A stretch of 64,000 nucleotides of DNA, taken from the NCBI RefSeq assembly GCF_965152275.1, contig NC_134246.1, positions 34,532,151 to 34,596,150 of the forward strand, written 5' to 3'. A program made the position numbers and the translations under genes. Source of the DNA: Natator depressus. Its lineage: Eukaryota. This document shows positions 1,268 to 47,525 of this stretch, one piece after another (position 1 is the stretch's first letter; each line of letters opens with the position of its first letter). Below the pieces are notes generated by a model. That model saw only the letters and a program-made list of their open reading frames with translations, was not told where the DNA came from and did no database searches.

Positions 1268-1384
1268 ATATCACTCACTAGAGCAAAAAGAACAGGAGTA
1301 CTTGTGGCACCTTAGAGACTAACCAATTTATTAGAGCATAAGCTTTTGTGGGCTACAGCTCACTTCATCGGATGCATAGAATGG
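1268..1384. repeat. Half copy (one arm only) of the abundant hairpin/palindromic repeat family.
   Basis: aaaaagaacaggagtacttgtggcaccttagagactaaccaatttattagagcataagcttttgtgggctacagctcacttcatcggatgcat; the same family as 1497-1722. Confidence 0.6.
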
Positions 1385-1496: not shown

Positions 1497-1722
1497 TCAG
1501 AGTAACAGCCATGTTAGTCTGTATTCGCAAAAAGAAAAGGAGGACTTGTGGCACCTTAGAGACTAACCAATTTATTTGAGTATGAGCTTTCGTGAGCTAC
1601 AGCTCACTTCATCGGATGCATCCGATAAAGTGAGCTGTAGCTCACGAAAGCTCATGCTCAAATAAATTGGTTAGTCTCTAAGGTGCCACAAGTACTCCTT
1701 TTCTTTTTGCATATCTGGTTTG
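1497..1722. repeat. Near-perfect palindromic (snap-back) repeat of ~225 bp, flanked by an 11-bp direct repeat atatctggttt.
   Basis: The left arm cagagtaacagccatgttagtctgtattcgcaaaaagaaaaggaggacttgtggcaccttagagactaaccaatttatttgagtatgagctttcgtgagctacagctcacttcatcggatgcat mirrors a reverse-complement right arm. The flanking ccatatctggttt at 1485-1496 matches atatctggttt at 1723-1733. Confidence 0.7.
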
Positions 1723-4432: not shown

Positions 4433-7235
4433 GAATCATAGAATCATAGAATATCAGGGTTGGAAGGGACCTCAGGAGGTCATCTACTCCAACCCCCTGC
4501 TCAAAGCAGGACTGATCCCCAACTAAACCATCCCAGCCAGGGCTTTGTCAAGCCTGACCTTAAAAACTTCCAAGGAAGGAGATTCTACCATCTCCCTAGG
4601 TAACGCATTCCAGTATTTCACCACCCTCCTAGTGAAAAAGCTAAACCTCCCCCACTGCAACTTGAGACCATTACTCCTTGTCCTGTCCTCTTCTACCACT
4701 GAGAATAGTCTAGAACCATCCTCTCTGGAACCACCTCTCAGGTAGTTGAAAGCAGCTATCAAATCCCCCCTCATTCTTCTCTTCCGCAGACTAAACAATC
4801 CCAGTTCCCTCAGCCTCTCCTCATAAGTCATGTGTTCCAGACCCCTAATCATTTTTGTTGCCCTTCGCTGGACTCTCTCCAATTTATCCACATCCTTCTT
4901 GTAGTGTGGGGCCCAAAACTGGACACAGTACTCCAGATGAGGCCTCACCAATGTCGAAGAGAGGGGAACGATCACATCCCTCGATCTGCTCGCTATGCCC
5001 CTACTTATACATCCCAAAATGCCATTGGCCTTCTTGGCAACAAGGGCACACTGCTGACTCATATCCAGCTTCTCGTCCACTGTAACCCCTAGGTCCTTTT
5101 CCACAGAACTGCTGCCTAGCCATTCAGTCCCTAGTCTGTAGCTGTGCATTGGGTTCTTCCGTCCTAAGTGCAGGACCCTGCACTTATCCTTATTGAACCT
5201 CATCAGGTTTCTTTTGGCCCAATCCTCCAATTTGTCTAGGTCCCTCTGTATCCTATCTCTGCCCTCCAGCGTATCTACCTCTCCTCCCAGTTTAGTATCA
5301 TCCGCAAATTTGCTGAGAGTGCAATCCACACCATCTTTCAGATCATAGATGAAGATATTGAACAAAACCGGCCCCAGGACCGACCCCTGGGGCACTCCAC
5401 TTGACACCGGCTGCCAACTAGACATGGAGCCATTGATCACTACCCGTTGAGCCCGACAATCTAGCCAACTTTCTACCCACCTTATAGTACATTCATCCAG
5501 CCCATACTTCTTTAACTTGCTGACAAGAATACTGTGGGAGACCGTGTCAAAAGCTTTGCTAAAGTCAAGAAACAATACATCCACTGCTTTCCCTTCATCC
5601 ACAGAATCAGTAATCTCATCACAGAAGGCCATTAGATTAGTCAGGCATGACCTTCCCTTGGTGAATCCATGCTGACTGTTCCTGATCACTTTCCTCTCAT
5701 GTAAGTGCTTCAGGATTGATTCCTTGAGGACCTGCTCCATGATTTTTCCGGGGACTGAGGTGAGGCTGACTGGCCTGTAGTTCCCAGGATCCTCCTTCTT
5801 CCCTTTTTTAAAGATTGGCACTACATTAGCCTTTTTCCAGTCATCTGGGACTTCCCCCGTTCGCCACGAGTTTTCAAAGAGAATAGCCAATGGCTCTGCA
5901 ATCACATCCGCCAATTCCTTTAGCACTCTCGGATGCAACTCGTCCGGCCCCATGGACTTGTGCACGTCCAGCTTTTCTAAATAGTCCCTAACCACCTCTT
6001 TCTCCACAGAGGGCTGGCCATCTATTCCCCATGTTGCGATGCCCAGCGCAGCAGTCTGGGAGCTGTCCTTGTTAGTGAAGACAGAGGCAAAAAAAGCATT
6101 GAGCACATTAGCTTTTTCCACATCCTCTGTCACTAGGTTGCCTCCCTCATTCAGTAAGGGGCCCACACTTTCCTTGGCTTTCTTCTTGTTGCCAACATAC
6201 CTGAAGAAACCCTTCTTGTTACTGCTGACATTTCTTGCTAGCTGCAGCTCCAGGTGCGATTTGGCCCTCCTGATTTCATTCCTACATGCCCGAGCAATAT
6301 TTTTATACTCTTCCCTGGTCATATGTCCAAACTTCCACTTCTTGTAAGCTTCTTTTTTATGTTTAAGATCCGCTAGGATTTCACCATTAAGCCAAGCTGG
6401 TCGCCTGCCATATTTACTATTCTTTCGACTCATTGGGATGGTTTGTCCCTGTAACCTCAACAGGGATTCCTTGAAATACAGCCAGCTCTCCTGGACTCCT
6501 TTCCCCTTCATGTTAGTCCCCCAGGGGATCCTACCCATCCGCTTCCTGAGGGAGTTGAAGTCTGCTTTCCTGAAGTCCAGGGTCCGTATCCTGCTGCTTA
6601 CCTTTCTTCCCTGTGTCAGGATCCTGAACTCGACCATCTCATGGTCACTGCCTCCCAGATTCCCATCCACTTTTGCTTCCCCCACTAATTCTTCCCTGTT
6701 TGTGAGCAGCAGGTCAAGAAAAGCTCCCCCCGTAGTTGGCTCGTCTAGCACTTGCACCAGGAAATTGTCCCCTACGCTTTCCAAAAACTTCCTGGATTGT
6801 CTATGCACCGCTGTATTGCTCTCCCAGCAAATATCAGGAAAATTAAAGTCACCCATGAGAACCAGGGCGTGCGATCTAGTAGCTTCTGCGAGTTGCCGGA
6901 AGAAAGCCTCATCCACCTCATCCCCCTGGTCCGGTGGTCTATAGCAGACTCCCACCACTACATCACTCTTGTTACTCACACTTCTAAACTTAATCCAGAG
7001 ACACTCAGGTTTTTCTGCAGTTTCGTACAGGAGCTCTGAGCAGTCATACTGCTCCCTTACATACAGTGCTACTCCCCCACCTTTTCTGCCCTGCCTGTCC
7101 TTCCTGAACAGTTTATAACCATCCATGACAGTACTCCAGTCATGTGAGTTGTCCCACCAAGTCTCTGTTATTCCAATCACGTCATAATTCCCTGACATCA
7201 CCAGGACCTCCAGTTCTCCCTGCTTGTTTCCAAGG
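4433..7235 (-). mobile_element. CR1 LINE copy 1 (sense on the minus strand). It is 5'-truncated (no ORF1 or 5'UTR), retains a near-complete ORF2, and ends in an (ATTCTATG)n 3' tail. It is inserted into a PARP14-like coding exon with a candidate 5-bp TSD, GGGAG, at 4428-4432 and 7234-7238.
   Basis: The plus strand at 4434-4450 reads gaatcatagaatcataga, the reverse complement of the CR1 ATTCTATG tail. Homology to CR1 copy 2 holds up to ~7235 and then switches to exon sequence. Confidence 0.8.
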
Positions 7236-7294
7236 GAGGACCTGCTGGAGGCCCTGGCCGCCGAGCCGTCCCTGGTAAAGGCGTTCGGGTCCAT
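4523..7294 (-). CDS. CR1 ORF2, apurinic-like endonuclease plus reverse transcriptase (923-aa open frame). The first ~19 codons ([19 protein letters not shown]) are read from the antisense of the host exon and are not CR1.
   Basis: CR1 homology begins at [31 protein letters not shown] motifs are [32 protein letters not shown] and the YADD-type [10 protein letters not shown]. The C-terminal part reads ...[47 protein letters not shown]. Confidence 0.8.
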
Positions 7295-8389
7295 CTGGGT
7301 CTATGACGGGGAGGACTTTGTCGGCTTGGTTGGGGAGATGGCACCGTTCCTCCAGCGCCTGACTGTTAGGGCCTTCCAGAGGCAGCTGGTGAGCCAGGAG
7401 TACCTGGCCGAGCCACTGCCCAGGTGGGTCATCATCAAGGACATGGTGGAGAAGGAGCTTCCTGACCCCCATGTCAGAATGGAGCTTTGACAGGGCACCC
7501 CAGCTATCATCACCTTCCAGGGACCCCGCCGGCAGGTGGCCGAGGCAGAGAGCCGGTGCCAGCAGCTGCTCAGGGCGTTCCAGGTCCTGTCGGTGCCCGT
7601 CTCGCCTCTCCAGGCGCGCTTCATCCAGGAGCACTGAGAGGATGTCTTCACCCCCAGCTTCTTCCTGGACTGGGGCATTGCCACCATCCTAGAGCTCCCA
7701 GACGGTGACTCAGGGATTGAGCTGGCCTGGGACCTCCCCGCTGGGCCGGCGCCCTCTGAGGGCATCTCAGTGGCTGGGCTGGAGCAAGAGAAGCTGCAGC
7801 ATGCAGCGGAGCTGCTGCAGGGCCTGGTGGGCTGCCGGACGGTGCTGATTGAGGAGGGCGTGCACTGGGTCACGCAGGGTCAGGAGTGGGCCGAGCTGCT
7901 GGCCGGGCTGGGCGCCTGGCAGGATGTGTCCCTGCACTGTGCCGCGAGCCAGGAGCAGCTGGTGGTGGTGGGCTTCCAGCCCTATGTGGCCCAGGCGGAG
8001 GCAGCCATCCGGGAGTATTTGCAGAGTAAATCACTGGCCGAGGAGCAACTGGACGTCCCCCGGCCAGAGCTGGCAGAAACCGGGGTGCAGCTGCTGCGCC
8101 TTATGGACTGGGAGCACCTCCAGGTCGCCGTCCAGCTGCACCCCAACCCTCGGGTGCTGTCCCTGGGGCTGCGGGGCCTCCTGCACCACCTGCAGTTGGC
8201 CAGCAGGGCCATCAAGGCTGACCTGGAGTCCCTGGTGCTGGGCACACTGCCCATCAGGGCCAGGCCTTGGGCGAGCACCTCTGTGGGGAGGGGGCGACCC
8301 TCCTGCAGGACCTGGCCCAGCAGCTCTGCTGTGTGGTGAGCCTGCGAGGAGACCCCCCTACAAATGGCCCATCCAGCACCTGTGGGCAG
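7239..8389 (+). pseudogene. 3' part of the large PARP14-like exon. It is in the same frame as 4195-4432 once CR1 and the TSD are removed. It carries two in-frame TGA codons (7488, 7635) and a frameshift near 8255-8270.
   Basis: Frame 0 continues as [17 protein letters not shown]...HVRMEL*QGTPAIITFQGPRRQVAEAESRCQQLL...QEH*EDVFTPSFFLDWGIATI...LVLGTLPIRA. It then shifts to LGEHLCGEGATLLQDLAQQLCCVVSLRGDPPTNGPSSTCGQ, followed by gtgaga. Both stops are consistent with CGA>TGA changes. Confidence 0.5.
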
Positions 8390-15300: not shown

Positions 15301-16520
15301 TGTTCTTCTAGACCAGGTGCTGTAATGGGAATGAAGCGAACAGGGCAATTTATTGAGTGATCAGCCAGTCCCAGCTTCTGCCAGTCAGAAGTTTAGGGAT
15401 ACCCTGAGCATGAGCCCTTTGCACCGAGATAGGGCCCTAGTTAAGAGCTGGGTCCTAGTGTGTGGGGGGAATGGGCAGGGGGCATCTCCACACAAGGTTG
15501 CACAGGAGACTGGCTGGGAGGAATGCTGCTCAGCATCACTAAGTTCCTTGCTGACTCCACAGGAATTAAAGTAGAGATCCAGAGAAAAGGCAAAGCTCTG
15601 AGGAAGGGCGGATGAGTGACTATAGGGCTCAGAAAGCAGTACCCAGGTCTAGGGAAGCTAGACGGCAGGATCTGATGGCCCTAGAGTGGGCATCAGACAA
15701 GAGATCTCAGCACCGGAGTGTCTCTGTGACAGTTCCATCCAGATCCAGTTGGCTTGGAAGAGAGAGTCAGAAACTGCATTTTCGCTCTTTGCTGTTCTTT
15801 CTTCTCCCCTTTTTGTGCTTGTGTCTTGATTTGTCTTCTAGGAATAAGATCCGACTTTAACAAGAGCAACCACAACTCCAGCCCATCTCCACAAACATCT
15901 TCTCTTTCCCCGCAAAGGACGGTTATCACCATCTTTGATAGCATCCAAGAGACATAGGGAGCTTTTCTTTCTAAAAACTCTCTCCACCTACAGGGCCAGG
16001 GAGCAAGGGGTGTTGTTCAACTGAAAGCTTGATTTAATACTTCACACTTCAAACACTCTTCAGCCTTCTTTTCTGTATCTTTAATGGAAGATTAATGAAG
16101 TAGTTATAATGGCATGTTTGCCTTGCGACTGGGCAGGCAGCGGTCTCTGCATACCAAACTCTGAGCCTTGTTTGACACCGTTTTATATCAGCTGGTGACT
16201 GGGTTATGTTGACTCTTTGGGCCCATGCAAAGTAGAACCCCGTTTATCGGCTCCTCCGTTATCTGGCCCTCTGCATTAACTGAACAACCAGGACTCCAGG
16301 GCCAGAAGTGGGCAATCTCTCCTGTGGCCGCTAGATGGTGCTAAAGCCCCACACATCCAGCTGCAGCCACTAGATGGCACTGCAGCCTCGCACTTCCCCG
16401 TTTTCGGTTTATCTGACTTTTTGATTATCCGAGCTGGCCCTGGTCCCAATTAGATTGGATAAGCAGGGCTCCGCGGTATGCCATCTAAATGAATACGGCA
16501 TGATTCACACAAAGTACCTT

Positions 16521-16691
16521 CAGAGTGGTAGCCGTGTTAGTCTGTATCACTAAAAAGAACGAGAAGTACTTGTGGCACCTTAGAGACTAACAAATTTATT
16601 TGAGCATCTGATGAACTGGCCCACGAAAGCGTATACTCAAATAAATATTTTAGTCTCTTAGGTGCCACAAGTACTCCTCGTTCTTTTTACA
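16521..16691. repeat. Second copy of the palindromic hairpin repeat, flanked by the direct repeat acaaagtac.
   Basis: cagagtggtagccgtgttagtctgtatcactaaaaagaacgagaagtacttgtggcaccttagagactaacaaatttatttgagcat...atgctcaaataaat...ttaggtgccacaagtactcctcgttctttttac. The flanks are cacaaagtacctt and acaaagtacttt. Confidence 0.65.
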
Positions 16692-17676
16692 AAGTACTTT
16701 GAAATCTTTGGGGTCACGATGCTGCTGAAGAAAACTGCTCAGTTCTTGTACTGCCCTTGTCTGCGTCAAGGGAACATCAGATACGCCACACTCAATCCAA
16801 CCTGAGTGCCATATCAAGTCCAGCATCCAGTCTCTGACAGTGATCAGACCTGGATGTTCAGAGGAAGGTTCACAGCAGAGAGATGTGGGATAAGCTGCCC
16901 CACAGTAGTCTCCAATAATTAGAGATTGGCTTAAGCCCTGAATGGTGTTTAATATCCCTTCCAAAAATGTTATCATAATTAACTATAACCCTGGATATGC
17001 TTCTTATCCAATCCTTATCTGTCTCTTGCTACATTTTTGGTCTCAGTGTCTCCCTGTGGCAATGAGTTCCGCAATCTAATTATGTGTCTTCTCCATGACA
17101 TCTGCACAAGCGTAGAACACCCTTCCAACAGCAATGCACAAAACCACCACCCTCATCTTATGCAGATCCTAGGACAATGAGAAGAGGTCTCGGCTTAAAG
17201 CACTTTTTCATTGCTCTATTATGTTTTTGTGCTTCTCTTCTTCTCTACAGCCATGCTACTGCATGCACTGGAATGGTTAGACTAAATGGACATATAGCTG
17301 GTCTATATGCAGAAATCCAACGGCAGCTAACAGGCCACTTCCACTTTTAGACTACCTGCAGACTTGAGCCCAGTGAACACTGTGTATGGTCCCGATCCTG
17401 CAGACAGATTCACTGTCATGCGGGTGCCTGGACTCACATTTAATTGCACTGGGATTATTCATGTGTTCGACCTATTCACTGGACCCAACCATTTGCAGGG
17501 ATGGACACTATCAGCATATTTATATGAGCATTGGAGTTCAGTAAGCTTATCACATTAAAAAGGGAGCTCTATCAGGTGCAATTGGGCCTACATTTTCACA
17601 AGGCTCCAAAAGCTAGGCCCTGAGGAAGAGATAGGAGAAAATCTTGAATGCCGTGGAAATGATCATGTGAAGATGG

Positions 17677-21130: not shown

Positions 21131-22969
21131 TTTGATTTTGTGCATCTATCTCTGTACAAATGACCCAAATTCCACTTTGGATTGAGGAAAGCAGGGTTTA
21201 TTCAACCCCCAAATGTTTGTGTTTTTTGATTCTCCAATTTTTTGTTGTTGCAATTTTTGGATTCTGTTGGACCCGAACTGAAATTTTGGGGGAAAATTTT
21301 TGAACTGCCGGTGAACTTAAAAATCAGTCATCCCCCCAGCTCAATTGCCTTCTTACCCTGCCCGAGCTCCCTTCCTCATTATTAGTGAGATCTTGAGGTC
21401 ACAGGTGAAAATTAGGCACCCGACACATTGGCCTTTCAATGGTGTTTGAGCACCTACCTGTCCTTTTTGCCCGCCCCCCCCAAGTTACAGTAAAACAAAG
21501 CAGAGCCTTACATCTATAGCACATCCCCTTTCTGTGCAGACACCAGAGGATCTGTGTGTGGATGGGGCAGGGACATGATATCTTCCTTCAGTGTTACATG
21601 ACTCCTGATCCCTATGGTATTAGCTCCCATGGCTCACAGAGGGATGCAGGAGTCAGCTGCTGTGTATCGCTAAGAGATCTTCCCTCTGGGGCTGAAGAAA
21701 CCTTTTGAAAATAAACATAAGGTAATGGGTTTATTCTGGGTCCTTAGAAAGGAAATCAGTGGAATGTTTGTACCGATTTCCATTATTACTTACAAACCAC
21801 CCAGGGAATTCCCAAAAAGTTTTTTAAAATGAAGCTGAGGCAGTCAGGCTCTCAGTAGGATGGATTACGTTCGAATTTCCCCTGCAGCATTACATGTTAA
21901 CTACAGCAGTAACTGCAGGACTTAGCTGGAATGGCATAGAGGTCTTCTCTAGAGGTGCTCAGAAAATGGGGCTTTTCTTTGTGACAGATGTGGATGAAAG
22001 CAGGGGAAATAATCATTTTTGTAGAAATTTTCATTGGAGAATGTGGCATTTCATCAAAAAACTGACAACTAAAGTTAAGATTTTGTCACAATTATTTTTA
22101 GTAGAAGTCACGGACAGGTCACGGGCAATAAAAAATTCACAGGGTGGGGGAGAGAAATGACAGCTAGAGTCTGTGGGGAACTGACAGGCCAAGCCCCACT
22201 GCCATGGTGGGGGCACAGCCCTGGCTCCAGCAGCTGCAGCTCCGGGGGGGGCGGGAGGGGAGGTGTGCAGAGCACCTTTGGAGCTGGCCGCAGCTGCAGG
22301 GCAGAGGCACACAAGTCCCAACTCCAACCCCAGCCATGGGCACACAGCCCTAGCCACAGCCATCGGGTGTGTGTGTGGTGGGGTGTGCATAGCTCCAGCC
22401 CCGGCAGAAGTTAGAGAGACAAGTTGAGGGAGGTAATATCTTTTCTTGAACCAGCTTGTGTTGGTGAGAGAGACAAGCTTTAGAGCTTCACAGTGCTCTT
22501 CTTCAGGTCTGGTAAATTTACCAGGACAGGTCTACACTACAGAACTATATCGGTATAATTATGTTGCTCAGCGGTAATCAACACACCTGAATGATGTAGT
22601 TATACTGACATAATTCCCCATGTAAACAGCGCTGTAGTGACAGGAGGAAGCGTTGCTACTAGCTGATAACACAGAGCAAGCAGTTTCTAAGTTTCTAAGA
22701 AGCTTAGAAGCTTCTTTGGCATGGTGGGTCACCCCTCTTAGAAAGCTTAATCACTCAGGCCCTCTTTCTATGTCCAAACTTGGTTTCCTCACTCACCGAA
22801 ATGTTGGGGTACACTTACTCCATAAGGTGGTATGTTTGTATATATTGATGACATATACATACATATTAATGTCATTAGATGGTTCTCATGTTTGTTATTT
22901 TAGTCCTCCCAGTTATTTCGGTTCTTTCCTTGTGGTATACCTGTTAAGCTTACAGAAAGTATGAACTTA

Positions 22970-24155: not shown

Positions 24156-25316
24156 GTGAGTGATGAGGACATGGACACAGACTTCTATCAAAGCAGGGGC
24201 CCTGGCAATGTGGGCATCATGGTGCTAAAGGGGCAGGTTCATGCGGTGGAACGCCGATTCTGGGCTTGGGAAACAAGCACAGACTGGTGGGATGGCATAA
24301 TGTTGCAGGTCTGGGACGATTCCCAGTGGTTGCGAAACTTTCGAATGCGTAAGGGCACTTTCATGAAACTTTGTGACTTGCTTTCCCCTGCCCTGAGGCA
24401 CAAGAATACCAAGATGAGAGCAGCCTTCACAGTTGAGAAGCGAGTGGCGATAGCCCTGTGGAAGCTTGCAATGCCAGACAGCTACTGGTCAGTCGGGAAT
24501 CAATTTGGAGTGGGCAAATCTACTGTGGGGGCTGCTGTGATGCAAGTAGCCAACGCAGTCAAAGATCTGCTGATATCGAGGGTAGTGACCCTGGGAAATG
24601 TACAGGTCATAGTGGAGGGCTTTGCTGCAATGGGATTCCCTAACTGCGGTGGGGCCATAGATGGAACCCATATCCCTATCTTGGCACCAGAGCACCAAGC
24701 CGGCGAGTACATAAACCGCAAGGGGTACTTTTCAATAGTGCTGCAAGCTCTGGTGGATCACAAGGGATGTTTCACCAACATCAATGTGGGATGGCCAGGA
24801 AAGGTACATGACGCTCACATCTTCAGGAACTCTGGTCTTTTTCAAAAGCTGCAAGAAGGGACTTTATTCCCAGACCAGAAAATAACCATTGGGGATGTTG
24901 AAATGCCTATATGTATCCTTGGGGACCCAGCCTACCCCTTAATGCCATGGCTTATGAAGCCATACACAGGCACCCTGGACAGTAGACAGGAGCTGTTCAA
25001 CTACAGGCTGAGCAAGTGCAGAATGGTGGTAGAATGTGCATTTGGACGTTTAAAAGCGCGCTGGTGCAGTTTACTGACTCGGTTAGACCTCAGCGAAACC
25101 AATATTCCCACTGCTATTACTGCTTGCTGTGTGCTCCACTATATCTGTGAGAGTAAGGGGGAGATATTTATGGTGGGGTGGGAGGTTGAGGCAAATCCTC
25201 TGGCTGCTGGTTTCGCACAGCCAGACACCAGGGTGGTTAGAAGAGCACAGGAGGGCGCGGTGCTCATCAGAGAAGCTTTGAAAACCAGTTTCATGACTGG
25301 ACAGGCTACGGTGTGA
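24156..25316 (+). CDS. Harbinger DDE transposase (DDE_Tnp_4 / HARBI1-like), intact 386-aa ORF.
   Basis: Candidate catalytic residues are AIDGTHIPILAPEH (D), ILGDPAYPLMPWLMKPY (D) and VVECAFGRLKARW (E), with the usual spacing. There are no internal stops. Confidence 0.75.
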   Translation: MSDEDMDTDFYQSRGPGNVGIMVLKGQVHAVERRFWAWETSTDWWDGIMLQVWDDSQWLRNFRMRKGTFMKLCDLLSPALRHKNTKMRAAFTVEKRVAIALWKLAMPDSYWSVGNQFGVGKSTVGAAVMQVANAVKDLLISRVVTLGNVQVIVEGFAAMGFPNCGGAIDGTHIPILAPEHQAGEYINRKGYFSIVLQALVDHKGCFTNINVGWPGKVHDAHIFRNSGLFQKLQEGTLFPDQKITIGDVEMPICILGDPAYPLMPWLMKPYTGTLDSRQELFNYRLSKCRMVVECAFGRLKARWCSLLTRLDLSETNIPTAITACCVLHYICESKGEIFMVGWEVEANPLAAGFAQPDTRVVRRAQEGAVLIREALKTSFMTGQATV

Positions 25317-25592: not shown

Positions 25593-26225
25593 TTAAAACT
25601 TATTGAATGCCAGCCTTCTTTTGCTTGGGCAATCCTCTGCGGTGGAGTGGCTGGGTGGCTGGAGGCCCCCCCCCCACCGCGTTCTTGGGCGTCTGGGTGA
25701 CGAGGCTATGGAACTTGAGGAGGAGGGCGGTTGGTTACACAGGGGCTGTAGCGGCAGTCTGTGCTCCTGCCTTTCCTGCAGCTCAACCATACACCAGAGC
25801 ATATTGGTTTGATCCTCCAGCAGCCTCAGCATTGAATGCTGCCTCCTCTCATCACGCTGCCGCCACATTTGAGCTTCAGCCCTCTCTTCAGCCCACCACC
25901 TCTCCTCCTGGTTATATTGTGCTTTCCTGCACTCTGACATTGTCTGCCTCCATGCATTCGTCTGTGCTATGTCAGTGTGGGAGGACAGCATGAGCTTAGA
26001 GAACATTTCATCACAAGTGCGTTTTTTTCGACTTCTAATCTTCACTAGCCTCTGGGAAGGAGAAGATCCTGTGATCCTTGAAACACATGCAGCTGGTGGA
26101 GAAAAAAAAAAGGCAGTGGTATTTAAAAAGACACATTTTCTAGAACAATGGCTACACTCTTTCACGGTAAACCTTGCTGTTAACATTACATACACAGCAC
26201 ATGTGCTTTCGTTCCAAGGTCGCAT
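25593..26225 (-). CDS. Candidate second exon / C-terminal coiled-coil part of the Harbinger Myb-like protein (210-aa open frame). Splice phase not resolved.
   Basis: ECRKAQYNQEERWWAEERAEAQMWRQRDERRQHSMLRLLEDQTNMLWCMVELQERQEHR. It is on the same strand and downstream of the GTGAGT donor, but no acceptor in a compatible phase was found. Confidence 0.3.
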   Translation of the reverse strand: MRPWNESTCAVYVMLTARFTVKECSHCSRKCVFLNTTAFFFSPPAACVSRITGSSPSQRLVKIRSRKKRTCDEMFSKLMLSSHTDIAQTNAWRQTMSECRKAQYNQEERWWAEERAEAQMWRQRDERRQHSMLRLLEDQTNMLWCMVELQERQEHRLPLQPLCNQPPSSSSSIASSPRRPRTRWGGGLQPPSHSTAEDCPSKRRLAFNKF

Positions 26226-26625
26226 TTTGCCGCCCCCCCATGGCTAACAGCAGGGAAGATTTCTGTTCAGCCACAGGCAAACAGCCCAGCAGGAACGGGC
26301 ACCTCTGAATGTCCCCTTAGGAAAAGCACCCTATTTCAACCAGGTGACCATGAATGATATCACTCTCCTGAGGATAACACAGAGAGATAAAGAACGGATG
26401 TTGTTTGAATGCCAGCAAACATACACTGCAATGCTTTGTTCTACAATGATTCCCGAGTACGTGCTACTGGCCTGATGTGGTAAAGTGTCCTACCATGGTG
26501 GGTGGAATAAGGCTGCCCTCCCCAGAAACCTTTTGCAAAGGCTTTGGGAGTACATCCAGGAGAGCCGCAAATACCAGGGCAAATTAATCATTAAACATGC
26601 TTGCTTTTAAACCATGTATAGTATT

Positions 26626-27297
26626 TTAAAAGGTACACTCACCAGAGGTCCCTTCTCTTCCTGGCAGGTCTGGGAGGCAGCCTTGGGTGGGTCCAGGGGT
26701 GACTGCCTCCAGGTCCAGGGTGAGAAACAGTTCCTGGCTGTCGGGAAAACCGGTTTCTCCGCTTGCTTGCTGTGAGCTATCTACAACTTCATCATCATCA
26801 TCTTCCTCGTCCCCAAAACCTGCTTCTGTGTTGCCTCCATCTCCATTAAAGGAGTCAAACAACAAGGCTGGGGTAGTGGTGGCTGAACCCCCTAAAATGG
26901 CATGCAGCTCATCATAGAAGCAGCATGTTTGGGGCTCTGAATCGGAGCAGCCGTTTGCCTCTCTGGTTTTCTGGTAGGCCTTAAGTTTCACGCGGCATTG
27001 CTTCAGGTCCCTGTTATGGCCTCTGTCCTTCATGCCCTGGGAGATTTTGACAAATGTTTTGGCATTTCGAAACCTGGAACGGAGTTCTGATAGCACGGAT
27101 TCCTCTCCCCATACAGAGATAAGATCCCATACCTCCCATTTGGTCCATGCTGGAGCTCTTTTGCGATTCTGGGACTCCGTCGTGGTCACCTCTGCTGATG
27201 AGCTCTGGCCAGCGTGACAAGCTGCAGGTGAACATGCAAACAGGAATTTGAAATTCAAAAGTTCACGGGCCTTTTCCTGTCTACCTGGCCAGTGCAT
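26626..27297 (-). CDS. Harbinger Myb/SANT-like DNA-binding protein, first exon (223-aa open frame). A GTGAGT splice donor on the minus strand at 26637-26642 suggests a downstream exon.
   Basis: RKRAPAWTKWEVWDLISVWGEESVLSELRSRFRNAKTFVKISQGMKDRGHNRDLKQCRVKLKAYQKTREANGCS is Myb/SANT-like, followed by an acidic tail (DEEDDDDEVVD). The minus-strand sequence reads gacctctg|gtgagtgtacc. Confidence 0.6.
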   Translation of the reverse strand: MHWPGRQEKARELLNFKFLFACSPAACHAGQSSSAEVTTTESQNRKRAPAWTKWEVWDLISVWGEESVLSELRSRFRNAKTFVKISQGMKDRGHNRDLKQCRVKLKAYQKTREANGCSDSEPQTCCFYDELHAILGGSATTTPALLFDSFNGDGGNTEAGFGDEEDDDDEVVDSSQQASGETGFPDSQELFLTLDLEAVTPGPTQGCLPDLPGREGTSGECTF

Positions 27298-28638: not shown

Positions 28639-31600
28639 CATAGAATCATAGAATATCAGGGTTGGAAGGGACCTCAGGAGGTCATCTTGTCCAACCCCCT
28701 GCTCAAAGCAGGACCGATCCCCGACTAAATCATCCCAGGCAGGGCTTTGTCAAGCCTGACCTTAAAAACTTCTGGGGAAGGAGATTCCACCACCTCCCTA
28801 GTGAAAGCATTCCAGTGTTTCACCACCCTCCTAGTGAAAAAGTTTTTCCTAATATCCAACCTAAATCTTCCCCACTGCAACTTGAGACCATTACTCCTTG
28901 TTCTGTCATCTGCTACCACTGAGAACAGTCTAGAGCCATCCTCTTTGGAACCCCCTTTCAGGTAGTTGAAAGCAGCTATCAAATCCCCTCTCATTCTTCT
29001 CTTCTGAAGACTAAACATCCCCAGTTCCCTCAGCCTCGCCTCATAAGTCATGTGTTCCAGTCCCCTAATCATTTTTGTTGCCCTCCGCTGAACTCTTTCC
29101 AATTTTTCCACATCCTTCTTGTAATGTGGGGCCCAAAACTGGACACAGTACTCCAGATGAGGCCTCACCAATGTCGAATAGAGGGGAACTATCACGTCCC
29201 TCGATCTCCTGGCAATGCCCCGACTTATACATCCCAAAATGCCATTGGCCTTCTTGGCAACAAGGGCACACTGTTGACTCATATCCAACTTCTCGTCCAC
29301 TGTAACCTCTAGGTCCTTTTCTGCAGAACTGCTGCCGAGACATTCGGTCCCTAGTCTGTAGCGGTGCATGGGATTCTTCCGTCCTAAGTGCAAGACTCTG
29401 CACTTGTCCATCAGATTTCTTTTGGCCCAATCCTCCAATTTGTCTAGGTCCCTCTGTATCCTATCCCTACCCTCCTGCGTATCTACCACTCCTCCCAGTT
29501 TAGTGTCATCTGCAAACTTGCTGAGGGTGCAATGCACACCATCCTCCAGATCATTAATGAAGATATTGAACAAAACCGGCCCCAGGACTGACCCCTGGGG
29601 CACTCCACTTGATATCGGCTGCCAACTAGACATGCAGCCATTGATCACTACCCGTTGAGCCCGACAATCTAGCCAGCTTTCTATCCACCTTATAGTCCAT
29701 CCAGCCCATACTTCTTTAACTTGCTGGCAAGAATACTGTGGCAGACCGTGTGAAAAGCTTTGCTAAAGTCAAGGAACAACACGTCCACTGCTTTCCCTTC
29801 ATCCACAGCGCCAGTTATCTCGTCATAGAAGGCAATTAGATTAATCAAGCATGACTTGCCCTTGGTAAATCCATGCTGACTGTTCCTGATCACTTTCCTC
29901 TCCTCTAAGTGCTTCAGAATTGATTCCTTGAGGACCTGCTCCATGATTTTTTCAGGGACTGAGGTGAGGCTGACTGGCCTGTAGTTCCCAGGATCCTCCT
30001 CCTTCCCTTTTTTAAAGATGGGCACTACATTAGCCTTTTTCCAGTCATCTGGGACCTCCCCCGATCGCCATGAGTTTTCAAAGATAATGGCTAATGGTTC
30101 TGCAATCACATCCGCCAACTCCTTTAGCACTCTCAGATGCAACGCATCCGGCCCCATGGACTTTTGCTTTTTGCTTTTCTAAATAGTCCTGAACCACTTC
30201 TTTCTTCACAGAGGGCTGGTCACCTCCTCCCCATGCTGTGCTGCCCAGTGCAGCAGTCTGGGAGCTGACCTTGTTCGTGAAGACAGAGGCAAAAAAAGCA
30301 TTGAGTACATTAGCTTTTTCCACATCCTCTGTCACTAGGTTGCCTCCCTCATTCAGTAAGGGGCCCACACTTTCCTTGACTTTCTTCTTGTTGCTAACAT
30401 ACCTGAAGAAACCCTTCTTGTTACTCTTAACATCTCTCGCTAGCTGCAACTCCAGGTGTGATTTGGCCTTCCTGACTTCACTCCTGCAAGCCTGAGCAAT
30501 ATTTTTATACTCATCCCTGGTCATTTGTCCAATCTTCCACTTCTTGTAAGCTTCTTTTTTGTATATAAGAGCAGCAAGGATTTCACTGTTAAGCCAAGCT
30601 GGTCGCCTGCCATATTTACTATTCTTTCTAGACATCGGGATGGTTTGTCCCTGTAACCTCAATAAGGATTCTTTAAAATACAGTCAGCTCTCTTGGACTC
30701 CTTTCCCCCTCATGTTATTCTCCCAGGGGATCTTGCCCATCAGTTCCGTGAGGGAATCAAAGTCTGCTTTTCTGAAGTCCAGGGTCTGTATTCTACTGCT
30801 CTCCTTTCTTCCTTTTGTTAGGATCCTGAACTTGACCATTTCATGGTCACTGCCTCCCAGGTTCCCATCCACTTTTGCTTCCCCTACTAATTCTTCCCGG
30901 TTTGTGAGCAGCAGGTCAAGAAGAGCTCCGCTCCTAGTTGGTTCTTCCAGCACTTGTACCAGGAAATTGTCCCCTACATTTTTCAAAAAGTTCCTGGATT
31001 GTCTGTGCACCGCTGTATTGCTCTCCCAGCAGATATTAGGGTGATTGAAGTCTCCCATGAGAACCAGGGCCTGCGATCTAATAACTTCTGCGAGTTGGCG
31101 GAAGAAAGCCTCGTCCACCTCCTCCCCCTGGTCTGGTGGTCTATAGTAGACTCCCACCACGACATCAGCCTTGTTGCTCAGACTTCTAAACTTAATCCAG
31201 AGACTCTCAGGTTTTTCTGCAGTTTCATACTTGAGCTCTGAGCAGTCATACTGCTCCCTTACATACAGTGCAACTCCCCAACCTTTTCTGCCCTTCCTGT
31301 CCTTCCTGAACAGCTTATATCCATCCATGACAGTACTCCAGTCATGTGAGTTATCCCACAAAGTCTCTGTTATTCCAATCACATCATAATTCCTTGACTG
31401 TGCCAGGACCTCCAGTTCTCCCTGCTTGTTTCCCAGGCTTCGTGCATTTGTATATAGGCACTTGAGGTAACCTGATGATCGCCCCTCTTTCTCAGTATGA
31501 GGCAGGAGCCCTCCCCTCTCACGCGCTCCTGCTCGTGCCTCCTCCCGGTATCCCACTTCCCCACTTACCTCAGGGCTTTGGTCTCCTTCCCCCGGTGAAC

Positions 31601-37630: not shown

Positions 37631-38575
37631 ATGAGCTATACCAGTGAAACTGCACAGAGGAATCACAGCACAGTGACCCAACTCATTTATCTTGGCTTCT
37701 CCCAGAATCCAGTGACACGAGCAATACTTTGCGTAGGTTTCTCCATTATCTACACCATCTCCCTGATGGGCAACAGCATCATCAACCTCATCACAATGCT
37801 GGACTTGGCCCTCCACACCCCTATGTATTTCTTCCTCTGGAACCTGTCCTTTTTGGAGAGCTGCTACATCTCTGTCACCATCCCCAAGATGCTGGTCAAC
37901 TTTGTCTCTGAGGAGAGGACCATCTCCTTCACTGGGTGTACCATCCAGATGCATTTCGTCCTTTCTCTTGGGACAGCAGAGTGCTACCTGCTGGCCGCCA
38001 TGGCATACAGGGCCATCTGCTCCCCTCTGCATTACCCCACCATTATGAATCCCAGAGCCCGTGCCAAGATGGCTGCTGTCTGCTGGCTCTGTGGAATCCT
38101 GATGCCCATGAGCAAAGTGATTTGTATCTTCTCCTTGCCCTACTGTGGGCCCAACAAGATCAACCACTTCTTCTGCGACATCCCCCCTGTGCTGAAGCTG
38201 GCCTGTGGGGACACCTCCAGGAGCGAGGTCTTCATTGTACCGATCAGCCTAATGATCTCTGTCATCCCCTTCCTAATGGTGCTGGTGTCCTATGCCTGCA
38301 TCCTCTACACCATCCTGAAGACAACTTTATCCGAGGGAAGGCACAAAGCTTTCTCCACCTGCTCCTCCCACCTCACCGCAGTCATCTTGTTCTATGGTTC
38401 AACCTGTGCTATGTACCTGCAGCCTAAGTCCAGCCACGTAGCGGACATGGACAGAGTGGTGGCCCTATTTCATACCGTCGTCATCCCCACGTTAAACCCT
38501 ATGATCTACAGCCTAAGGAACCAGGAGGTGAAGGCTGCTCTGAAGAGACTGAGGGGGAGGAAAAGATTTTCATGA
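37631..38575 (+). CDS. Olfactory receptor (class II-like), single exon, 314-aa open frame. The DRY motif is deleted (MAY-RAIC where MAYDRYVAIC is expected), so it may be non-functional.
   Basis: LGFS, PMYFFLWNLSFLESCY, KAFSTCSSHL, PTLNPMIYSLRNQEVKAALKRL and an N-terminal NHS glycosylation site are present. At 38003-38017 the sequence reads gcatacagggccatc, encoding AYRAI. Confidence 0.8.
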   Translation: MSYTSETAQRNHSTVTQLIYLGFSQNPVTRAILCVGFSIIYTISLMGNSIINLITMLDLALHTPMYFFLWNLSFLESCYISVTIPKMLVNFVSEERTISFTGCTIQMHFVLSLGTAECYLLAAMAYRAICSPLHYPTIMNPRARAKMAAVCWLCGILMPMSKVICIFSLPYCGPNKINHFFCDIPPVLKLACGDTSRSEVFIVPISLMISVIPFLMVLVSYACILYTILKTTLSEGRHKAFSTCSSHLTAVILFYGSTCAMYLQPKSSHVADMDRVVALFHTVVIPTLNPMIYSLRNQEVKAALKRLRGRKRFS

Positions 38576-39400: not shown

Positions 39401-39506
39401 GTGTTTGAGGCTTGCCAGGGCTGAGCCCTAGCATCTCTAGGCTTGAAAGTTCACAGCCCCAGCATGTCTGGTCTTGCTGTGTCAGACAGAGGCACCAACT
39501 TTCTAT

Positions 39507-39672
39507 TAAGAAAAGGAGTATTTGTGGCACCTTAGAGACCAACAAATTTATTTGAGCATAAGCTTTCGTGAAGTGAGCTGCAGCTCATGAAAGCTCATGC
39601 TCAAATAAATTGGTTAGTCTAAGGTGCCACAAGTACTCCTTTTCTTTTTGCGAATACAGACTAACACAGCTG
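39507..39672. repeat. Third copy of the palindromic hairpin repeat, flanked by the 12-bp direct repeat caactttctatt.
   Basis: aaaaggagtatttgtggcaccttagagaccaacaaatttatttgagcataagctttcgtgaagtgagctgcagctcatgaaagctcatgctcaaataaattggttagtctaaggtgccacaagtactccttttctttttgcgaatacagactaacacagctg. The flanks are ccaactttctatt|...|caactttctatt. Confidence 0.7.
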
Positions 39673-39957
39673 CAACTTTCTATTGTGTCAGGGGTGCTCT
39701 CCCCCGCTCTGCCCCAGGCCCTGCCCCCACTCCTCCCCTTCCCCAAAGGCCCCATGCCTTCCCCGCCTCTTTCTGCCCTGCTCTGCCATGCCCTGCCTCA
39801 TCCCACCCTGTTCTGCCCCCTCCCCTGAGTACACCCTGCCCTCGCTCCTCCCCGCTCTGTCCCAGTGCCTCCTGCATGCTGCTAAACAGATGATCACTGG
39901 GGAGAAAGGGGAAAGTTGATTGGGGATGGGTGATGAGCACCCACCATATTTTTTCAA

Positions 39958-44092: not shown

Positions 44093-44521
44093 TTAACCAG
44101 TTGATTCTGGGAAACTTTCACTGGAGAGTGCATCAGCCGCCTTGTTAGAAGTTCCTGAAATGTGTTGTATTTCAGAATCAAAATCTTGGAGAGCTAAACT
44201 CCACCGAAGAAGTTTTTTGTTATTGTCCTTGACGGTATGAAGCCACTTCAGCGCAGAATGGTCAGTTTGCAGGTGGAAACGCCATCGCCAAACGTATGGG
44301 CGTAGCTTTTCCAGAGCGTACGTGATGGCGTAACATCCCCTTTTGCTGATTGACCAGTGGCTTTCCCTCTCAGACAGTTTTTTGCTGAGAAACACGACAG
44401 CATGGAATTCTTGATCCGGTCCTTCCTGCATTAAAACTGCTCCTACACCACGCTCAGATGCATTTGTGGTTACTAGGAACGGATTGTCAAAGTCTGGGGC
44501 CTTTAGCACAGGGTCAGACAT
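44093..44521 (-). CDS. RNase H domain.
   Basis: FLVTTNASERGVGAVLMQEG...HAVVFLSKKLSERESHWSISKRGCYAITYALEKLRPYV...LQTDHSALKWL. Confidence 0.65.
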   Translation of the reverse strand: MSDPVLKAPDFDNPFLVTTNASERGVGAVLMQEGPDQEFHAVVFLSKKLSERESHWSISKRGCYAITYALEKLRPYVWRWRFHLQTDHSALKWLHTVKDNNKKLLRWSLALQDFDSEIQHISGTSNKAADALSSESFPESTG

Positions 44522-44691
44522 GAGTGTCTCTTTAAGCTGGTTAAAGGCCTTCTGACACTCTTCAGTCCACTGAACTGCATTTGGCTGGGGTTTTTTGGTT
44601 AGGTCTGTTAGTTGGGCAGCAATTTGGCTGTATTGTGGTACAAATCACTGTAATATCTGACCAAGCCTAAGAAGGATTGGACCTGTTTTTT

Positions 44692-45342
44692 TTACTTTGG
44701 GACAGGCCACTTTTGGATAGCATCCACTTTGGCCTGTAGGGGGTTGATGGTTCCTTGACCCACCTGGTATTCAAGGTAAGTCACTCTGTTTAGACCTACT
44801 TGACACTTAGCCTTAACAGTTAGTTCTGCCTCCCTTTTGCTCTTGAAGGCTTTTTGTAGATGTTCCAGGTGTTCTGCCCAGGAATCCGAAAATATGGCCA
44901 CATCGTCAAGGTAGGCGACTGCATATTCTCCCAATCCCTCCAGGAGACCATTTACAACTTTTTGGAAGGTGGCGGGTGCATTTCGCAGCCCGAAAAGGAG
45001 CACATTAAATTCATACAGCCCAACATGTGTGATGAAGGCTGACCTTTCCTGGGCTGATTCATCTAGAGGTACCTGCCAGTACCCCTTGGTTAAGTCCAAG
45101 GTAGAGATGAACTGGGCCCGTCCCAGTTTCTCTAATACGTCATCTGTGCGTGGCATTGGATAGTTGTCTGGGCAAGTTACAGCATTTAGCTTACGGTAGT
45201 CCACGCAAAAACGTATCTCCCCATCTGGTTTGGGCACTACAACTACTGGAGATGCCCATGCACTGCCAGAGGGGTGGATTATACCCATCTGCAGCATATC
45301 CTGGATCTCCCGTTCTATAGCAGTTTTAGCTTGAGGAGACAC
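44692..45342 (-). CDS. Reverse transcriptase (Ty3/Gypsy type).
   Basis: WASPVVVVPKPDGEIRFCVDYRKLNAVT, LDLTKGYWQVPL, LLFGLRNAPATFQ, AYLDDVAIFS. Confidence 0.75.
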   Translation of the reverse strand: MSPQAKTAIEREIQDMLQMGIIHPSGSAWASPVVVVPKPDGEIRFCVDYRKLNAVTCPDNYPMPRTDDVLEKLGRAQFISTLDLTKGYWQVPLDESAQERSAFITHVGLYEFNVLLFGLRNAPATFQKVVNGLLEGLGEYAVAYLDDVAIFSDSWAEHLEHLQKAFKSKREAELTVKAKCQVGLNRVTYLEYQVGQGTINPLQAKVDAIQKWPVPK

Positions 45343-45620
45343 CCAGTAAGGTTGGTCTCTAAATGGGTGAGCATTACCTGTGTCAATGGAGTGTTATGCC
45401 CGTTCAGTCAGTCCTGGGGTGGCTGAGAACATTGACGCGTAGCTAGTGCACAGCTCCTTGATCTGCTGTCACTGCATACGCCCAAGGGTCATGGAGAGGT
45501 TCACCTCTTCCACATCACCAGCACTTTTCCCTTCGTAGTAGACACCTTCAGGCCACTCAGCGTCACCTCCTCCCTGGGCTGTAAACTGACAAACCTTTAA
45601 TTCTCTGGAATAAAAGGGAT

Positions 45621-46857
45621 TTAGAGAATTAATGTGGTACTCCTTAGGCTTTCAGTCTGAGGTGGGGAATGCTTTGAGATAACAGCTCCCAGGCACTCTT
45701 GGACCATGAATGGCCCTTCCCACGATGCTTCCATTTTATGGGCCTGGAGCGCTTTCAAGACCATGACCTGGTCTCCTACTTGGAAGAAACGCTCTCTGGC
45801 ATGTTTATCATACCAGGCTTTTTGCTCTTTTTGAGAGTCTTGTAGATTTTCTTTAGCAAGGGCTAAAGAGGTTAGGAGGGTGTTTTGTAGTTTGGGTACA
45901 AAGTCCAGAATGTTAGTTCCTGGAGAAGGTGTAAACCCCTCCCATTGCTGCTTCACCAACTGTAATGGCCCCTTAACCTCATGGCCATATACAAGTTCAA
46001 ATGGTGAAAACCCTAAACTGGGATGTGGTACAGCTCTGTAGGCAAAGAGCAACTGCTGCAACACTAGGTCCCAATCATTGGAGTGCTCATTTACGAATTT
46101 ACATATCATGGCCCCCAAAGTTCCATTAAACTTCTCCAGCAGGCCATTTGTTTGATGGTGGTAAGGAGTGGCAACCAAGTGATTCACCCCATGAGCCTCC
46201 CAAAGGCTTTCCATTAGTTCCTGCATCTGTAAGGATGTAGGAGGGCCAACCTACCTTGGCAAAAATGTCTGTTAGTGCCTGGCACACACTTTTAGCCCTG
46301 ATGTTGCTTAGAGCTACTGCTTCCGGCCATCGAGTGGCAAAATCCATGAAAGTCAGTATGTACTGCTTTCCTCTGGGTGTCTTTTTCGGAAAAGGACCCA
46401 GAATATCCACAGTTACTTGCTGAAATGGAACCTCAATGATGGGGAGTGGCTGGAGAGGGGCTTTGACCTGGTCTTGGGGTTTTCCCACTCTTTAGCACAC
46501 CTCACAAGAGTGGACATAGGTAGAAACATCCTTGCCCATTCCCTCCCAGTGGAACAACTTTCCCAAATGGTCTTTGGTTCTGTTCACCCCGGCATGGCCA
46601 CTAGGATGATCGTGGGCTAAGCTCAAGAGCTTGGCCTGGTACTTAGTTGGAACTACCAACTGTCTCTGAGGATGCCAGTCGTCCTGGTGTCCACCAGAAA
46701 GAGTTTCCTTGTATAAAAGTTCTCTTTCTACAACAAACCTGGATTGATTAGAAGAGCTGAGAGGCGGTGGGTTACTCCGTGCCATGCTCCAAGCTCTCTG
46801 GAGGCTTTCATCTGCTTCCTGTTCGGTCTGGAACTGTTCCCTTGATGTTGGAGACAT
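45621..46857 (-). CDS. Integrase (HHCC zinc finger plus rve catalytic core plus C-terminal part), three overlapping ORF pieces. It lies UPSTREAM of the RT in element sense.
   Basis: LAHDHPSGHAGVNRTKDHLGKLFHWEGMGKDVSTYVHSCEVC is the HHCC finger. VDILGPFPKKTPRGKQYILTFMDFATRWPEAVALSNIRAKSVCQAL...ILTDAGTNGKP is the D,D core. ATPYHHQTNGLLEKFNGTL carries the E. Confidence 0.7.
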
Positions 46858-47525
46858 CAGTTCTTAATTGGATTGTGGACCTGGGCTTGGTCCCTCTGGA
46901 AGCAATGCAGGTGATGGGCTGTTTCCGTTGACTGTGAACCACTCTCTGCTGGTGCACTATGTTGGGGTTCAGGCTCTGGCTGAGCCTCTTGTGTAGGGTT
47001 ATCTGCTGCTGCCAATGCAGGTTCGGTGGGGCCCTCTGGTGTTGGGGTTGCAAGCACTGGATTCAGTGCTGGCAATGGTTCTGGTTCTGGGACTGGCTCT
47101 GTCTGGGTCTCTGGGACTGGATCCACTACTGCTGTTGCAGACGTTGGCATGGGGTCTGGTTCCATCACCTCTGACTGGGTCCTGGTAGAAGTCTCCAGAA
47201 CAGAGCTAGGTGTGACAGCTTGCTTCACCTGGCTGCAGTTGACCATTCCCACCCTCTTAGCTAGCTTCCCATGATTGGCCAGGTCTTCCCCCAACAGCAT
47301 GGGGATGGGATAATCATCATAGAGTGCAAAAGTCCATGTTCCTGACCAGCCCTTGTACTGGACAGGCAACTTGGCTGTAGGCAAGTCAAAAGAGTTTGAC
47401 TTGAAGGGTTGAATCGTTACTTGGACCTCTGGGTCAATTAAATTGGGGTCCACTAAGGAAGCCGTGGATAGCTGACACTTGTGCTCTGGTGTCCCTCCAT
47501 GCTGTAACCTTCTTCCCACCCACAT
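46857..47525 (-). CDS. pol segment with protease-like region and a Pro-rich linker (222-aa open frame). The catalytic D-S/T-G is not clearly recognisable.
   Basis: LVDPNLIDPEVQVTIQPFKSN...YDDYPIPMLLGEDLANHGKLAKRV, followed by a PEPEP-rich linker. Confidence 0.4.
   Translation of the reverse strand: MWVGRRLQHGGTPEHKCQLSTASLVDPNLIDPEVQVTIQPFKSNSFDLPTAKLPVQYKGWSGTWTFALYDDYPIPMLLGEDLANHGKLAKRVGMVNCSQVKQAVTPSSVLETSTRTQSEVMEPDPMPTSATAVVDPVPETQTEPVPEPEPLPALNPVLATPTPEGPTEPALAAADNPTQEAQPEPEPQHSAPAESGSQSTETAHHLHCFQRDQAQVHNPIKN

Follow-up and report, generated by a model that had tools for sequence, protein, structure and literature searches.

Three palindromic insertions, at 1497-1710, 16521-16689 and 39508-39672 of a 64-kb window from the flatback sea turtle, Natator depressus (the window being the whole stretch of DNA that was analysed), most probably go back to old insertions in which a Penelope-like retroelement (PLE) contributed a non-coding unit about 125 nt long. 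In each palindrome the same region is present twice with its 3′ ends pointing outward and its 5′ ends truncated, and the arms are not symmetric terminal inverted repeats. Palindromes of this type belong to a well-described class whose insertion mechanism is largely understood. Architecture, the layout of a putative ribozyme and geometry are the grounds for this proposed assignment to PLEs, which does not draw on homology to a reverse transcriptase.

The arms of the first palindrome (copy 1; 1527-1618 and 1619-1710) are 92 nt long, 97% complementary and adjoin with a gap of 0 nt. Those of copy 2 (16551-16607 and 16633-16689) are 57 nt long, 91% complementary and 25 nt apart. Copy 3 has an inner arm pair of 36 nt (39536-39571 and 39585-39620; 89% complementary, gap 13 nt) and an outer pair of 29 nt (39508-39536 and 39618-39646; 97% complementary, gap 81 nt). 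Folded as single-stranded DNA, copy 1 reaches -111.8 kcal/mol where shuffled sequences reach -21.4 +/- 3.3 (z = -27), and the core 20-mer GTGGCACCTTAGAGACTAAC has 6 matches in the window at up to 3 mismatches, against 0.00 in shuffled sequence. A first-pass annotation had recognized three long palindromes of one mobile family at these places, and the complementarity of the arms, 89-97%, and the folding of copy 1 bear this out. Outside its own copies, the unit of the family has no match anywhere in the window.

The unit became apparent when all arms were aligned as they read away from the palindrome centres. The resulting consensus of 125 nt is ATGCAT-C-CGATGA-A-GTGAGC-TGTA-GCTCAC-GAAA-GC-TC followed by ATGCTCAAATAAATTGGTTAGTCTCTAAGGTGCCACAAGTACTCCTTTTCTTTTTGC + GAATACAGACTAACACGGCTGTTACTCTGA, and it is non-coding, with stop codons in all frames. 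On its outward strand a hammerhead-like motif is followed by a short 3′ end, 57 nt past the predicted cut, and a long 3′ end, 87 nt past it. The outer ends of the copies cluster accordingly at two places, consensus 90-95 and 116-125. The short class comprises the right end of copy 1 and a solo copy at 1283 (both at consensus 95), the right end of copy 2 (94) and the left end of copy 3 (90); the long class comprises the left ends of copies 1 and 2 and a solo copy at a distant locus, L019 (all at 125), and the right end of copy 3 (116). All three palindromes have one short and one long arm, the extra outer bases (21-30 nt, on one arm only) being those at 1497-1526 (30), 16521-16550 (30) and 39652-39672 (21), and solo copies both with and without this tail exist. 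All counts of end clusters, tails and architectures given here are for five insertions, three palindromic and two solo. That the arms are unequal had been noted at first pass, and the inequality stands; the ends had been thought ragged, but the outer ones fall into two discrete clusters.

It is the inner ends that vary, lying at consensus 1 and 1 in copy 1, 39 and 3 in copy 2, and 27 and 11 in copy 3, and at the junctions the arms share 3-6 nt of microhomology. The long arm of copy 1 (1497-1621, minus strand) is a full 125-nt unit, identical to consensus 1-125 at 122/125 positions, and its short arm (1616-1710, plus strand; consensus 1-95, 94/95 identity) has no tail and has its core box mutated to CCGATAA; the palindromic ATGCAT at 1616-1621 is common to both. 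In copy 2 the long arm (16521-16607, minus strand; consensus 39-125, 79/86 identity) ends internally where the hammerhead is predicted to cut, to within the 4 nt by which the two arms overlap, a single case from which nothing is inferred. The short arm of copy 2 (16604-16689, plus strand; consensus 3-94) has the canonical CTGATGA box at 16608-16614 but a 7-nt deletion in helix II. Both arms carry the private variant CTCGTTCTTTTTA, and their microhomology, GCAT, corresponds to the two paired strands of helix I in the hammerhead-like motif. The short arm of copy 3 (39508-39571, minus strand; consensus 27-90, 60/64 identity) is without tail, while the tail of its long arm (39569-39672, plus strand; consensus ~11-116) is 9 nt shorter than that of copy 1; here TGA at 39569-39571 is common to both arms.

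One of the two solo copies, absent from the first-pass annotation, is a non-palindromic half copy 120 bp upstream of copy 1 (1283-1377, minus strand). It corresponds to consensus 1-95 with 90/95 identity and has neither tail nor inverted partner. The fifth insertion, of the long type, is at 16817-16941 of L019, on the same chromosome and 1.5 Mb distant. Just upstream of ATGCAT the two solo copies are alike at 11/16 bases, with no further significant similarity there. The density of the family is 5 insertions in ~85 kb, with the inverted, head-to-head arrangement of 5′-truncated units in 3/5. Only inverted pairs and solo copies were seen among the five, with no tandem or ORF-flanking (pseudo-LTR) arrangement, the lack of which is to be expected because the copies are heavily truncated. 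The copies are dispersed and 1-13% diverged from the family consensus. As RNA the unit folds no better than shuffled sequence (z = -0.5), and no conserved structure was found in its 3′ region or tail; a 9-bp hairpin in the tail was considered as a conserved structure and set aside, as it is not kept in copy 2.

Each palindrome is flanked by its own direct repeat, as first described, though the lengths then given, 11, 9 and 12, become 12 bp each. The 12-mer CATATCTGGTTT is repeated exactly (12/12) at 1486-1497 and 1710-1721 around copy 1, where base 1497 may double as the first base of the element. Copy 2 is flanked by ACAAAGTACCTT at 16509-16520 and ACAAAGTACTTT at 16689-16700, which agree at 11/12 positions, the pair being ACAAAGTAC(C/T)TT, and copy 3 by CAACTTTCTATT at both 39496-39507 and 39673-39684 (12/12). 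The length of the target-site duplication (TSD) is 12 bp in 3/3 palindromes, with a 1-nt ambiguity at some ends, and the chance of an exact 12-mer repeat at both boundaries as defined by the alignment is ~6e-8 per copy. The original argument that such duplications are too long for cut-and-paste MITEs holds at this measured length. The duplicated sequences are AT-rich, with 25-33% GC against 48% for the window, the target context is CAC/N12/G (slashes, limits of the duplicated 12-mer) in 3/3 palindromes, and the sequence at 5/6 inferred nick sites is N^GT. No flanking repeat of at least 6 nt was found around the solo copies at 1283-1377 and in L019.

The hammerhead-like motif is of the minimal type. 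In the long arm of copy 1 it is at 1584-1615 on the minus strand, with the sequence CCGATGA-A-GTGAGC-TGTA-GCTCAC-GAAA-GC-TC and a predicted cut between 1584 and 1583. The consensus RNA, AUGCAU-C-CGAUGA-A-GUGAGC-UGUA-GCUCAC-GAAA-GC-UC/AUGC (slash, predicted cut), has a 4-bp helix I (AUGC/GCAU), the core box, an unpaired A, a 6-bp helix II and GAAA. It is without helix III; in its place is the 4-nt palindrome AGCU, which is predicted to be able to pair between two molecules, followed by C and the cleavage site. A relaxed descriptor of minimal hammerheads has one match in the window, the long arm of copy 1, compared with 0.01 per dinucleotide-shuffled window, and the other arms fail it through point mutations or a deletion. 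Apart from U4, for which the hammerhead core has C, the consensus has all core bases and structural features. Four arms have the core box as CCGATGA, CCAATGA or CCGATAA; CCAATGA, and the CTGATGA found in copy 2 only, may have come from CpG decay. A hammerhead with C at this position we take to be probably a weak or dead ribozyme. The motif is probably a relic, or else a weak ribozyme, and dispensable for mobilisation.

Rfam hammerhead models (types I, II, III, HH9 and HH10) gave no match at the gathering threshold in the whole window and none at E<=10 over 1200-1800. This silence is uninformative, since the models also miss the canonical minimal hammerhead of a second family in the same genome and so do not cover forms that lack helix III. 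In minimal hammerheads of PLEs, helix I is short, helix II is long and preceded on its 5′ side by an unpaired base, and helix III is lacking, although a palindromic linker permits a dimeric one (PMC4209133). Most of these motifs are single and dispersed or form close pairs on opposite strands, and they have been reported in turtles (PMC4209133). The present motif is like those of Cervera and de la Pena 2014 in helices I and II, the unpaired base and the palindromic linker, and differs from them in having C for U at core position 4 of its consensus.

A head-to-head inverted copy, a 30-40-bp tail at one end only, short TSDs and a hammerhead are published hallmarks of PLEs (PMC8557442, PMC3846280, PMC4209133). 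Rotifer PLE copies have been described in which inverted pLTRs overlap, the junction being palindromic, and one of the pLTRs has a 31-bp tail (Arkhipova et al. 2013, PMC3846280); the TSDs of these copies are 8-10 bp, and the pLTRs suffice in cis for mobilisation in trans (PMC3846280). The turtle copies resemble published insertions in their head-to-head 5′-truncated pairs with a palindromic junction, in the tail at one end, the short TSDs, the AT-rich target and the hammerhead-like motif on the sense strand, and also in being part of the high copy number of short PLE fragments known from non-avian reptiles. PLEs number 139,606 in Testudo graeca, where they make up 30.0 Mb with a mean of 215 bp, and in Mauremys mutica they rank third among classes in abundance. 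Points of difference are the TSD length, 12 bp in all three turtle palindromes as against 8-10 bp in rotifers, and the coding capacity of published PLEs, no ORF-bearing relative of the turtle unit having been found here. The first-pass annotation had considered the mobilisation mechanism not obvious from the sequence, and had counted an element of known kind and known mechanism as what would overturn its reading; with these hallmarks the palindromes are essentially such an element, and the mechanism is no longer so obscure.

No remnants of a PLE reverse transcriptase or endonuclease were found by tblastn with the protein of Poseidon_Ac (PAc), a PLE of Anolis carolinensis, in the window and five turtle loci (~105 kb), and in short 5′-truncated copies the ORF would be expected to be missing. 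Among the best 120 database hits to the Anolis PLE protein, mostly from insects, none was a turtle protein. The window and unit have no nucleotide similarity to PAc, whose Repbase consensus is given by Frangieh et al. 2024 (PMC11167929). The comparison with that element is one of layout. Its ribozyme, CUGAGGA-U-GCCUGC-...-GUGGGC-GAA-ACGU-C/A, cuts after nt 29, the tail comprises nt 85-119 and reverse transcription starts at both ends of the tail; the enzyme, which prefers AT-rich DNA, cleaves and extends both target strands, unlike that of R2 or L1 (PMC11167929). From cut to start sites the distances in PAc are 55 and ~90 nt, and from cut to 3′ ends in the turtle unit 57 and 87 nt; the tails are ~34 and 30 nt respectively. 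Both motifs bulge one base, pair 6 bp in helix II and replace helix III by a 4-nt palindrome. In contrast, the PAc core is canonical, CUGAGGA in place of the CCGAUGA of the turtle consensus; PAc usually occurs in tandem, its copies nearly identical, while the turtle copies are dispersed and diverged; and the PAc region corresponding to the turtle unit is the start of an ORF. Priming on two strands from internal starts, as with PAc, predicts the inverted arrangement, the fixed outer ends and the variable inner joins of the turtle copies.

The placing of the outer ends next to the TSDs, with truncation at the inner ends, agrees with the earlier suggestion that integration resembles target-primed reverse transcription, and it fits target-primed synthesis only if the outward strand is of RNA sense. 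Read in that sense, the sequence runs from ATGCAT through the minimal hammerhead-like motif to the 3′ region. A PLE reverse transcriptase with its GIY-YIG endonuclease, supplied in trans, would nick an AT-rich target on both strands with a 12-bp stagger, and each 3′-OH would then prime reverse transcription on the element RNA, starting either proximally (consensus 90-95) or distally (116-125), the 30 nt between the two starts being the PLE “tail”. The two converging cDNAs, both of the same sense, would stop at or before the 5′ end of the RNA and their 3′ ends would join at the self-complementary ATGCAT, GCAT or TGA. Same-sense cDNAs can hold together only at self-complementary stretches, and the three junctions are such stretches. 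The expected product is a head-to-head palindrome whose 3′ ends point outward, whose centre varies and of which one arm is tailed, set between 12-bp TSDs; use of one strand alone would give a solo copy.

A bolder reading of the PLE origin, in which the turtle family is an in-vivo record of the PLE enzyme acting as a symmetric dimer, is unlikely at present. It draws on the fixed 12-bp stagger, the N^GT sequence at five of the six nicks and the use of one distal and one proximal start in 3/3 palindromes, and also on the amplification of the family despite C at hammerhead U4. Were it to hold throughout the genome, it would mean that the two primings are coupled and asymmetric and that PLEs can mobilise in vivo without a catalytic ribozyme.

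Formation of the palindrome from a single cDNA of the same PLE-derived element, snapping back and priming itself at ATGCAT or at helix II and then being resolved by the endonuclease at the tail boundary, is unlikely. Self-priming has been proposed for PLE palindromes (PMC3846280), as has endonuclease-mediated resolution of the tail (PMC8557442), and the junctions are at self-complementary sequences. The short arm is within the range of the long arm in copy 1 (1-95 in 1-125) and copy 3 (27-90 in 11-116) and so could in both be a partial copy-back. Against this, each arm of copy 2 holds private sequence, consensus 3-38 in one and 95-125 in the other, although a later central deletion could account for it. 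Furthermore, the short-type end at consensus 95 recurs on the solo copy at 1283-1377, which has no partner, and the long-type end is also found on a solo copy; and the purified Anolis enzyme extends both strands from two discrete starts that bound the tail (PMC11167929). The snap-back intermediate envisaged in the first-pass annotation is thus disfavoured by the arms of copy 2 and the ends of the solo copies, while for copies 1 and 3 it retains some plausibility.

Mobilisation of a pol III-transcribed SINE by a LINE (CR1 or L2), with inversions arising by twin priming, is very improbable. The TSDs have the length of LINE-type target-primed insertions, and CR1 LINEs are abundant in the window, one with an intact ORF of 923 aa at 4523-7294. 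A partner LINE would share the 3′ end ...ACACGGCTGTTACTCTGA, and the unit has no similarity to the CR1 copies of the window, no poly(A) and no microsatellite tail of the CR1 type. The search for pol III promoter boxes that had been suggested gave A and B boxes with 3 mismatches each, the same as in random 125-mers, and no tRNA-like region was found by ARAGORN. When L1 undergoes twin priming, the segment that is inverted derives from RNA nearer the 5′ end, so that one 3′ region is not used twice. With a LINE-type tail wanting and the unit matching only its own copies in the window, the LINE-mediated integration first proposed is not supported. The weakest candidate, a cut-and-paste DNA transposon derivative (MITE or foldback) with the arms as long terminal inverted repeats, would explain the near-perfect long inverted repeats, the small size and the flanking direct repeats, but it is exceedingly improbable and already largely refuted by termini that are unequal in every copy (21-30 extra bases on one arm), half copies with the inner and outer ends of the arms, a variable centre between outer ends that keep to two sites, the presence of a hammerhead-like motif on the outward-pointing strand and a 12-bp TSD, which to our knowledge fits no eukaryotic DNA-transposon superfamily.

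The second turtle family with a minimal hammerhead came to light in L019 by descriptor search. Its motif, CUGAAGA-A-GAGCUC-...-GAGCUU-GAAA-GC-UU, is canonical, and further copies are at 22412-22509 of the window and in Chelonia and Trachemys. In the Trachemys copy the inverted arm measures 24 nt, only one of the arms is extended by a tail (~40 nt), and the flanking repeat is CAATGAA(G/A)G. An inverted tail fragment beside the copy in the window was considered and is unsupported (p = 0.3). Homology between the two families is marginal (p ~0.07 for the ribozyme region and ~0.03 for the tails), so that what they appear to show is parallel architecture and not a demonstrable shared ancestry.

[quoted passage not shown] The turtle unit is like them in being short and non-coding, in its hammerhead-like motif and in its probable relation to PLEs, and the family differs in its inverted pairs and solo copies, with no tandem repeats seen. 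Scanning metagenome collections and those of viral and prokaryotic genomes for exact 18-mers yielded 12 loci, all of them chance matches of 19-24 nt and none with the element. The turtle family may or may not already be in Dfam or Repbase.

For annotation, the palindromes are better labelled Penelope-like insertions than an unknown hairpin transposon, and beyond annotation this has little weight. Nevertheless the copies provide clean examples from nature of what the 2024 in-vitro result, two strands primed from two internal starts, leads one to expect (PMC11167929), and the hammerhead core substitution in the consensus fits the view that insertion needs no ribozyme cleavage. Long perfect palindromes like copy 1 are also potential sites of assembly error and of genome instability.

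Copy 3 with the same TSD is present in Natator, Chelonia mydas and Caretta caretta and so predates the sampled cheloniids. There was no clean empty site for it in Macrochelys, where synteny breaks off exactly at 39495 and is regained at 39954, a 3.9-kb block of unrelated sequence lying between. No copies of the family were seen in 63 kb of Macrochelys, Trachemys and Chelonoidis, a sample too small for absence to be concluded. A protein search with the presumed exon at 7770-8339, directed at the loci orthologous to those of copies 1 and 2, gave no match, and exact look-up of the CR1 ORF of the window and of a Lepidochelys ortholog gave no record. The arms of copy 1 differ by ~3%, similar to the 3.0-3.4% divergence of Natator and Caretta flanks. 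The window has the composition of vertebrate DNA (48% GC, CpG observed/expected 0.28), and an intact olfactory-receptor ORF at 37631-38575 has an exact counterpart on chromosome record OZ223866.1 of assembly GCA_965152195.1, its protein being assigned to Natator depressus. In Caretta, copy 3 has been split by the later insertion of a tRNA-SINE.

The context CAC|N12|G surrounds the target-site duplications of all three palindromic copies of the first repeat family, probably derived from a Penelope-like element (PLE), with CAC at 1483-1485 and G at 1722 for copy 1, at 16506-16508 and 16701 for copy 2, and at 39493-39495 and 39685 for copy 3. Five of the six inferred nick sites therefore read N^GT, a pattern that may reflect an endonuclease preference on both strands, three target sites being too few for certainty. 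The two solo copies of this family, at 1283-1377 and, 1.5 Mb away on the same chromosome, at 16817-16941 of locus L019, agree at 11 of the 16 bases directly 5′ of ATGCAT, the palindromic start of the unit (1378-1393 versus L019 16801-16816), and beyond those 16 bases upstream no significant similarity between the two was found. The match suggests that the source RNA may begin some 16 nt further upstream than the centre of the copy 1 palindrome.

A second hammerhead-bearing family, with only marginal sequence likeness to the first, is represented at 22412-22509 (minus strand) and in the turtle loci L019 (11040-11165), L017 (13359-13507) and L014 (2068-2165). Its L019 copy carries a canonical minimal hammerhead, CTGAAGA-A-GAGCTC-TGTGT-GAGCTT-GAAA-GC-TT, and in a Trachemys copy, which is flanked by a repeat, a short arm is inverted and just one of the arms bears a tail, some 40 nt long. 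This copy thus shows the PLE-type architecture of the first family.

Among the best 120 matches to the protein of Poseidon_Ac, the PLE of Anolis carolinensis, other anoles come first and are followed by insects (beetles, a cockroach, a termite) and unnamed metagenome ORFs, these insect and metagenome relatives having 56-60% identity; no reptiles other than anoles are among the 120, and this distribution hints at horizontal transfer of the Poseidon_Ac lineage.

The Caretta caretta ortholog of copy 3 (L020 11517-11692) is split by a tRNA-derived SINE that ends in a CR1-type tail (...gatattctatgacttctatgattctatga) and that entered the left arm once the lineages had split. Synteny with the alligator snapping turtle, Macrochelys, breaks off precisely where the left-hand duplication of copy 3 begins, the breakpoint coinciding with the insertion boundary, and restarts 458 bp on, 39496-39953 being replaced there by an unrelated 3.9-kb block (L016 11872-15811).

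The window also has an intact CR1-type LINE ORF of 923 aa with endonuclease and reverse transcriptase domains (4523-7294, minus) and a further, broken CR1 copy (28725-31556, minus). An intact 386-aa ORF (24156-25316, plus), by eye like a PIF/Harbinger (HARBI1-type) nuclease, probably represents a Harbinger transposon, or else a copy that has been domesticated; ORFs on the opposite strand (25593-27297, minus) adjoin it. Of two intact olfactory-receptor genes (37631-38575, plus; 54843-55838, minus), the former has 98% identity with Chelonia mydas OR10A2/10A7, and between them sits a decayed retrovirus-like element (Gypsy or ERV type; 44093-48574, minus) that contains ORFs for reverse transcriptase, RNase H and integrase.
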